Shown piece after piece: positions 58,348 to 58,453 of a DNA stretch of 64,000 nucleotides. Below the pieces are notes generated by a model that was not told the origin of the DNA, ran no database searches, and worked only from the letters and a program-made list of their open reading frames with translations. Positions within the stretch are counted from its first letter, which is position 1; each line of letters begins with the position of its first letter. Position numbers and translations under genes: made by a program. Source of the DNA: Escherichia coli (lineage in GTDB: Bacteria; Pseudomonadota; Gammaproteobacteria; Enterobacterales; Enterobacteriaceae); assembly GCF_003334815.1 (NCBI RefSeq), contig NZ_QOWO01000010.1; one strand, 5' to 3'.

Positions 58348-58453
58348 ACGGTTATAAATCAACATATTGATTTATAAGCATGGAAATCCCCTGAGTGAAA
58401 CAACGAATTGCTGTGTGTAGTCTTTGCCCATCTCCCACGATGGGCTTTTTTTT
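58348..58453 (+). ncRNA. rprA: RprA small regulatory RNA
   Basis: acggttataaatcaacatattgatttataagcatggaaatcccctgagtgaaacaacgaattgctgtgtgtagtctttgcccatctcccacgatgggcttttttt matches the RprA sequence as I remember it, ending in an intrinsic terminator. Confidence 0.9.

Follow-up and report, generated by a model that had tools for sequence, protein, structure and literature searches.

What does the stretch between ydiK and ydiL encode in the 64,000 nucleotides of Escherichia coli DNA analysed here (the window), and what does its distribution among related bacteria say about its function? An earlier note, made from the letters of the window, had read positions 58348–58453 as RprA, an Rcs-activated small RNA that stimulates rpoS translation, lying in the ydiK-ydiL intergenic region and running to a hairpin with a T-tail. 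The element is almost certainly that gene, that is, rprA on the plus strand, which is transcribed independently into an E. coli small RNA of the Hfq type, 106 nt long. When the whole window was scanned with Rfam 15, which was the check that the note had named, the RprA model (RF00034) matched 58348–58455 (+) with 118.5 bits, 48 bits above the gathering score of 70 (E = 1.6e-16), and the match exceeds this threshold over the full model (positions 1–108 of 108). The ydiK-ydiL spacer, 428 bases long, is 100% identical to that of E. coli K-12 MG1655, with which the window is collinear from about position 1,712,025, and K-12 b4431 (rprA, 1770372..1770477) maps exactly onto 58348–58453, so that both the place and the boundaries given by the earlier note hold. 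Read directly, the 5′ end from 58348 is acggttataaatc and the 3′ end is the hairpin gcccatctcccacgatgggc (58426–58445) followed by T8 (58446–58453), as the note had described. The 20-base core of rprA occurs once in the window when 3 mismatches are allowed, with 0.01 chance matches expected.

The features needed for what follows are, from left to right:
57050–58162, plus strand: ydiK, a 370-aa ORF for a transporter of the AI-2E family (RefSeq annotation)
58169–58191, plus strand: hairpin after ydiK, a perfect G+C-rich stem of 10 bp with a 3-base loop, 7 bases past the stop and without a T-run
58299–58312, plus strand: RcsB-box-like dyad TGAGACGAATCTGA at -49 to -36, abutting the -35 element and predicted from conservation
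58313–58318, plus strand: -35-like hexamer TCGACG (4/6), 17 bases before the -10 element; G43 and A44 nearly invariant
58336–58341, plus strand: -10 hexamer TACTAT; TAnnAT (T64, A65, A68, T69) nearly invariant across the order
58348–58453, plus strand: rprA transcript, 106 nt; full-length Rfam match, identical to b4431
58350–58379, plus strand: 5′ stem-loop, nt 3–32, in the minimum free energy (MFE) and centroid folds
58380–58409, plus strand: single-stranded, rpoS-pairing arm, nt 33–62, which includes CCCCUG and AACGAAUU
58409–58428, plus strand: invariant 3′ core or seed UGCUGUGUGUAGUCUUUGCC, nt 62–81, the last bases of which begin the terminator stem
58426–58453, plus strand: intrinsic terminator from the terminator scan, with its stem at 58426–58445 and a U8 tail at 58446–58453
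58591–58947, plus strand: ydiL (RefSeq annotation), the downstream neighbour, which is lineage-specific

Within the species the locus is nearly universal: of 5426 complete E. coli genomes, 5424 match in a megablast of 58148–58600, and in the matching strains the ydiK-ydiL spacer carries a RefSeq annotation of rprA. The remark that no ORF-based track would report the gene is thus right for tracks built from ORFs only, which miss rprA, but the standard RefSeq annotation has it. When compared with K-12 b4431 (RF00034), the copy in the window differs in nothing, since sequence, coordinates, neighbours, promoter architecture, structure and terminator are all identical. The complete identity of the spacer and the exact correspondence with b4431 mean that the element is a known gene in an ordinary copy, without anything unusual about it. 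In a few E. coli genomes the ydiK-rprA-ydiL spacer has two matching places, plasmids account for three such places, and coverage of the spacer stays below 80% in 18 genomes; these duplicate or partial matches are possible insertions or rearrangements at rprA.

Several other RNA features of the window can be recorded here. The sRNA gene rydB (52684–52744, minus strand, 81.6 bits; b4430 in K-12) is located between sufA and ydiH. It occupies the same place as in K-12, as does the pair of tRNA genes valV-valW at 34411–34565 (+). A match to the Rfam family STnc550 (25429–25819, minus strand, 396.5 bits) covers cydH (ynhF, b4602), a gene of 29 codons, and includes the long cydH 5′ leader up to the divergent purR promoter, which means that this “sRNA” family represents the mRNA of a small protein. 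Finally, the 3′ end of a match to the “antisense RNA” family HPnc0260 (34530–34692, minus strand, 112 bits) corresponds to the reverse complement of the tRNA-Val gene valW (34492–34565, plus strand); this match is most likely an artefact of a model containing a tRNA complement.

That rprA has a promoter of its own is indicated by conservation, which was used to define this promoter in place of a σ70 consensus scan. The scan found no promoter for rprA, as expected of an activator-dependent promoter whose -35 element is too weak. In an alignment of 116 orthologous loci, conservation of at least 90% is reached by the promoter dyad (columns A25, T27, G30, A31, A34, T36, C37 and A40), by GAC of the -35 element and by TAnnAT of the -10 element; the transcript starts with the A at 58348, 7 bases after the -10 hexamer and at the same start coordinate as in the K-12 annotation. 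The dyad pattern T.[AG]GA....TC[CT].A together with a correctly spaced -10 of the form TAnn[AT]T is found in 111 of the 116 loci, compared with 5 of 2320 shuffles (0.2%), and among the five loci lacking this combination two are not rprA genes. The commonest version of the dyad, TAAGAGGATTCTTA, matches the published RcsAB consensus TAAGAATATTCCTA (PMC12388358) at 11 of 14 positions, so the motif at -49 to -36 is consistent with an RcsB box. In K-12, the rprA promoter of which is identical to that of the window, promoter fusions have shown that rprA transcription is strictly RcsB-dependent (PMC6298664, PMC12388358), and the description of the RNA as Rcs-activated fits both these data and the conserved dyad.

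The promoter also bears on the suggestion that the element is merely the 3′ untranslated or terminator region of ydiK and no independent gene. It is true that, among the 120 loci listed, 107 have a YdiK homologue directly upstream of rprA and in the same orientation, and that the hairpin after ydiK lacks a T-run, which makes some read-through conceivable; this hairpin is probably the 3′ end structure of ydiK, and, having no T-run, it is not picked up by the terminator scan. However, the RcsB box and the -10 promoter, 185 bases past the ydiK stop, have been kept in 111 of 116 loci, the annotated 5′ end of rprA is at 58348, and the published fusions make expression strictly dependent on RcsB (PMC6298664), which together leave a mere ydiK 3′ region very improbable. 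Still more improbable is a small protein, either of 49 aa from the ORF at 58395–58544 (+) or of 58 aa from that at 58352–58528 (-): both stand in the program-made ORF list, but the plus-strand frame runs across the terminator and its T-run, conservation is not codon-like (indels of many lengths in the 5′ half, an invariant block of 20 bases), the RprA base pairs covary across orthologues and the structural model RF00034 fits over its full length.

As a structured RNA, the independently transcribed rprA product has an MFE of -25.8 kcal/mol (z = -2.5 relative to shuffles), and its predicted fold comprises a long 5′ stem-loop (nt 3–32), a mostly open middle and the terminator (nt 79–98). As in RprA, there are thus three stem-loops, the last of which is an intrinsic terminator followed by a U-tail. 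When the structure derived from the window was laid over the 116 sequences, 82.7% of cells were paired, as against 26–46% with partners slid by 1–3 columns, a comparison in which the tested structure is favoured somewhat because the window sequence that gave it is itself in the alignment. The helices of the 5′ stem-loop, which is the proposed duplex-recognition element for RNase E (PMC6202311), are 66–81% paired across these sequences, and at 10 of their 12 pairs both partners have changed. The terminator hairpin (7 pairs, 5 of them G-C, with a loop of 6) is the sole terminator-like site that the terminator scan reports in 58100–58650; it is paired in 99.3% of cells and changes by compensatory substitutions, from C-G to U-A in 15 sequences and from A-U to G-C in 5. 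Support for the short middle hairpins is weak, with 70% pairing in helix 4 and a 3-bp hairpin that, lying inside the invariant core, cannot covary.

Much is already established on how RprA acts, since publications on this RNA, or on one nearly identical to it, have described Hfq binding and RNase E processing (PMC5861431, PMC6202311, PMC3465796), and RprA is known to respond to Rcs, Cpx and LrhA (PMC5861431). Compensatory mutations have shown that it represses csgD via nt 60–97 and 28–45 and ydaM via nt 45–75 (PMC3465796); it also represses hdeD (PMC5861431). Activation of rpoS translation is given as the published mechanism in PMC3465796, with reference to Majdalani 2001/2002, and the same paper describes the effect of an rprA knockout on σS as weak. 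RNase E acts through recognition of the 5′ stem-loop and liberates a shorter 3′ species (PMC6202311), described as RprA60-105 in PMC3465796. According to this published work, phosphorylated RcsB activates rprA transcription under envelope stress. The middle arm of the RNA (nt 33–62) base-pairs with the upstream side of the hairpin in the rpoS leader, by which the ribosome-binding site is freed, in what is called anti-antisense activation. The 3′ core (nt ~60–97) and nt 28–45 bind the csgD leader and repress it, dgcM/ydaM and hdeD are likewise repressed, and RNase E frees a stable 3′ fragment (nt ~60–105) carrying the core.

Pairings computed against the K-12 rpoS and csgD leaders agree with this scheme to different degrees. 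For csgD, site I was predicted without prior input: RprA nt 59–83 would pair with -111 to -83 of the leader (ΔG = -30.4), an energy reached by 0 of 100 shuffles, and this computed site is the anti-site I validated by compensatory mutations in PMC3465796. For rpoS, a scan limited to nt 30–78, the accessible core of the molecule, places the best site at -128 to -93 (ΔG = -27.9). In the predicted fold of the rpoS leader, the arm at -118 to -94 pairs with -18 to +6, holding the ribosome-binding site and the start codon, so the location of the site would be right for anti-antisense activation. The energy of the duplex is not distinctive: it is not better than that of shuffled RprA, being matched by 35 of 300 shuffles (z = -1.3), so it is published genetics, and not the computation, that supports the pairing of RprA with rpoS. 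Stimulation of rpoS translation by the RNA is the mechanism published (PMC3465796), and the best predicted site is in the arm that sequesters the Shine–Dalgarno sequence and AUG. Two other ways of computing the pairings were set aside. A structure-blind local scan on rpoS chose the G+C-rich terminator stem, which is inaccessible, and was replaced by the scan of nt 30–78; folding whole-molecule duplexes with the rpoS and csgD leaders was uninformative because huge loops are allowed and shuffles score nearly alike. RprA resembles DsrA and ArcZ in being an Hfq-dependent rpoS activator that opens the ribosome-binding site via the upstream arm of the leader, a mechanism cited for RprA in PMC3465796 and PMC6202311, and the best accessible rpoS site predicted for the RNA of the window is in that same arm. 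In contrast, DsrA and ArcZ are products of other genes, with other promoters and other signals.

When considered across the order, the parts of RprA differ in how widely they are kept. Orthologues span 48 genera of Enterobacterales, and the exact 20-base core TGCTGTGTGTAGTCTTTGCC (nt 62–81) is found in at least 120 species-representative genomes of this order, in genera that include Escherichia, Yersinia, Proteus, Photorhabdus, Erwinia, Dickeya and Edwardsiella. As the fetched loci were retrieved by the core itself, finding it invariant in them is partly circular; the stretch is also in upper case in the independently built Rfam consensus. Downstream neighbours vary: a YdiL homologue follows in only 10 of 120 loci among the matches listed, these being confined to Escherichia and Citrobacter, and in Klebsiella the downstream neighbour of rprA is ppsA. 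The 5′ half of RprA is variable in the alignment of 116 loci, and only 73 of them retain CCCCUG in the rpoS-pairing arm. Its carriers are all Enterobacteriaceae, most Erwiniaceae, and some of the Rahnella and Rouxiella, whereas Yersinia, Serratia, Pectobacteriaceae, Morganellaceae and Hafniaceae lack it. Since the RcsB box, the core and the terminator are kept in these groups, the ancestral functional unit looks, from conservation, like Rcs control plus the 3′ core, and the rpoS arm may be a later addition in Enterobacteriaceae and Erwiniaceae. The narrower distribution of the rpoS segment (73/116), together with the weak effect of the knockout on σS (PMC3465796), further suggests that activating rpoS is probably neither the ancestral nor the main function of RprA.

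The core is also found outside bacterial rprA genes. In an IMG/VR scan the core UGCUGUGUGUAGUCUU(UGCC), fused to varied terminators, occurs exactly in at least 120 viral contigs. None of the 120 listed viral loci has ydiK or the 5′ half of RprA. In 117 of them the core runs straight into a stable hairpin with a T-run, for which 44 different terminator sequences are found, and the sequences upstream belong to at least ten unrelated families; CC[CT]CTGA stands 9 or 14 bases before the core in 17 listed loci. Of the 120 listed viral loci, 100 (100 of the 109 with enough upstream sequence) have a CI-type repressor ORF upstream of the core and in the same orientation, its end being 179–1436 bases from the core (median 532), and early recombination genes follow the core. 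For instance, a Citrobacter metagenome-assembled genome has the core in an early region of lambdoid type, with a CI/CII-like regulator gene just before it and exonuclease and gam genes after it. In phage LLS (PQ299149.1) it is at 31919–31938 on the minus strand (L247:3716-3760), and the order is repressor gene, operator-like inverted repeat with a TTGACC-17-TAGATT promoter, leader, core with terminator, and a gene of the yfdP family; the leader of about 340 nt is structured (z = -3.5).

These modules are not rprA genes: they have no 5′ half and no linkage to ydiK, and their scores lie below the Rfam threshold (nothing at gathering level in 14 representative viral loci, and 40.8 bits against the RprA model, with its threshold of 70, for the phage LLS module). 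What they share with rprA is the seed, sometimes CCCCUGA, and the terminator architecture. A refetch by an anchor in the leader of the largest viral family, which removes the ascertainment bias of a search by the core, gave 93 new loci, of which 17 have the core with at most 1 mismatch and ~36 are without it, while ~35 keep TGCTGTGTGTAGTCTT and then run into another terminator stem. A single-stranded part of 16 bases is thus conserved and the hairpin behind it is interchangeable, so the former behaves as a seed. Megablast of RprA nt 37–108 against deposited phages returned no match, because the shared core is shorter than the 28-base word, and the relatives were found through the viral-contig family; a family-wide megablast of the L188-type module against phages likewise returned none. 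No literature on the core sequence or on a phage mimic of RprA was found in a search that most subscription journals lay outside.

As regards their function, it is possible, and we put it forward only tentatively, that the module carried by these temperate phages of Enterobacterales is a mimic of the RprA seed, that is, an RNA resembling processed RprA that would be made from the end of the immunity-region or early-left transcript. Some phage-derived regulatory RNAs arise by early termination, StxS from Shiga-toxin phages being one example. The layout of phage LLS would agree with this, as it suggests a short RNA ending at the first terminator of an early transcript; unlike StxS, the phage module carries the RprA seed, adjoins the repressor gene in the early-left region and is without an Rfam family.

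An alternative is that the phage core does not act as an RNA and is only the identity segment of an attP site, by which phages would integrate into rprA at its 3′ end. That rprA can serve as an integration site is suggested by Phytobacter massiliensis (NZ_HE578945.1), where a perfect 69-bp direct repeat corresponding to RprA nt 37–105 (L048:850-918, L049:1213-1281) surrounds a phage-like interval. The second copy of the repeat lies 8067 bp downstream of the real rprA gene, and the interval, which holds a tape-measure-like gene and a Ner-like repressor but no integrase, looks like a decayed prophage in an attachment site at the rprA 3′ end. Several observations speak against this reading. As ydiK and the RprA 5′ half are missing from all 120 listed loci, no attL-type junctions are seen; the core follows the repressor gene at the short distance given above in 100 of these loci; the integrase gene of phage LLS starts about 3.4 kb beyond the core; and the seed stays constant although different terminators follow it. 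A crude motif search near the phage cores found no integrase, which counts as weak negative evidence. A P1-like phage-plasmid, which does not integrate, carries the core too. We therefore consider the attP explanation unlikely, and less likely for most copies than a seed RNA made by the phage.

Two such P1-like Enterobacter phage-plasmids of about 90 kb, pJBIWA008_2 (NZ_CP074151.1, L125:4001-4047) and NZ_CP085744.1, carry only RprA nt 60–107, in a gene-free gap of 1.3 kb after a PmgS-like gene and with a G+C-rich hairpin just upstream; the phage-plasmid and the Citrobacter element have nothing else in common beyond the core. They are the only real partial copies on plasmids, since plasmid matches to full RprA are either segments of chromosomes or chromosomes with a wrong label.

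As far as the window is concerned, the result is of value as confirmation only, in that a textbook sRNA gene has been found where it is expected. For the family, the confinement of the rpoS arm to part of the order suggests that the core targets, csgD and others, may represent the older function, and a late and narrow rpoS arm would fit the weak σS phenotype of rprA mutants. If the seed-mimic reading of the phage modules is true, the phage RNA would reach RprA targets such as csgD, and with it curli and the biofilm matrix, and the prophage state would be linked to the Rcs/RprA regulon. If expressed, these modules would constitute a widespread phage-encoded mimic of a host envelope-stress sRNA that is invisible to Rfam-based annotation.
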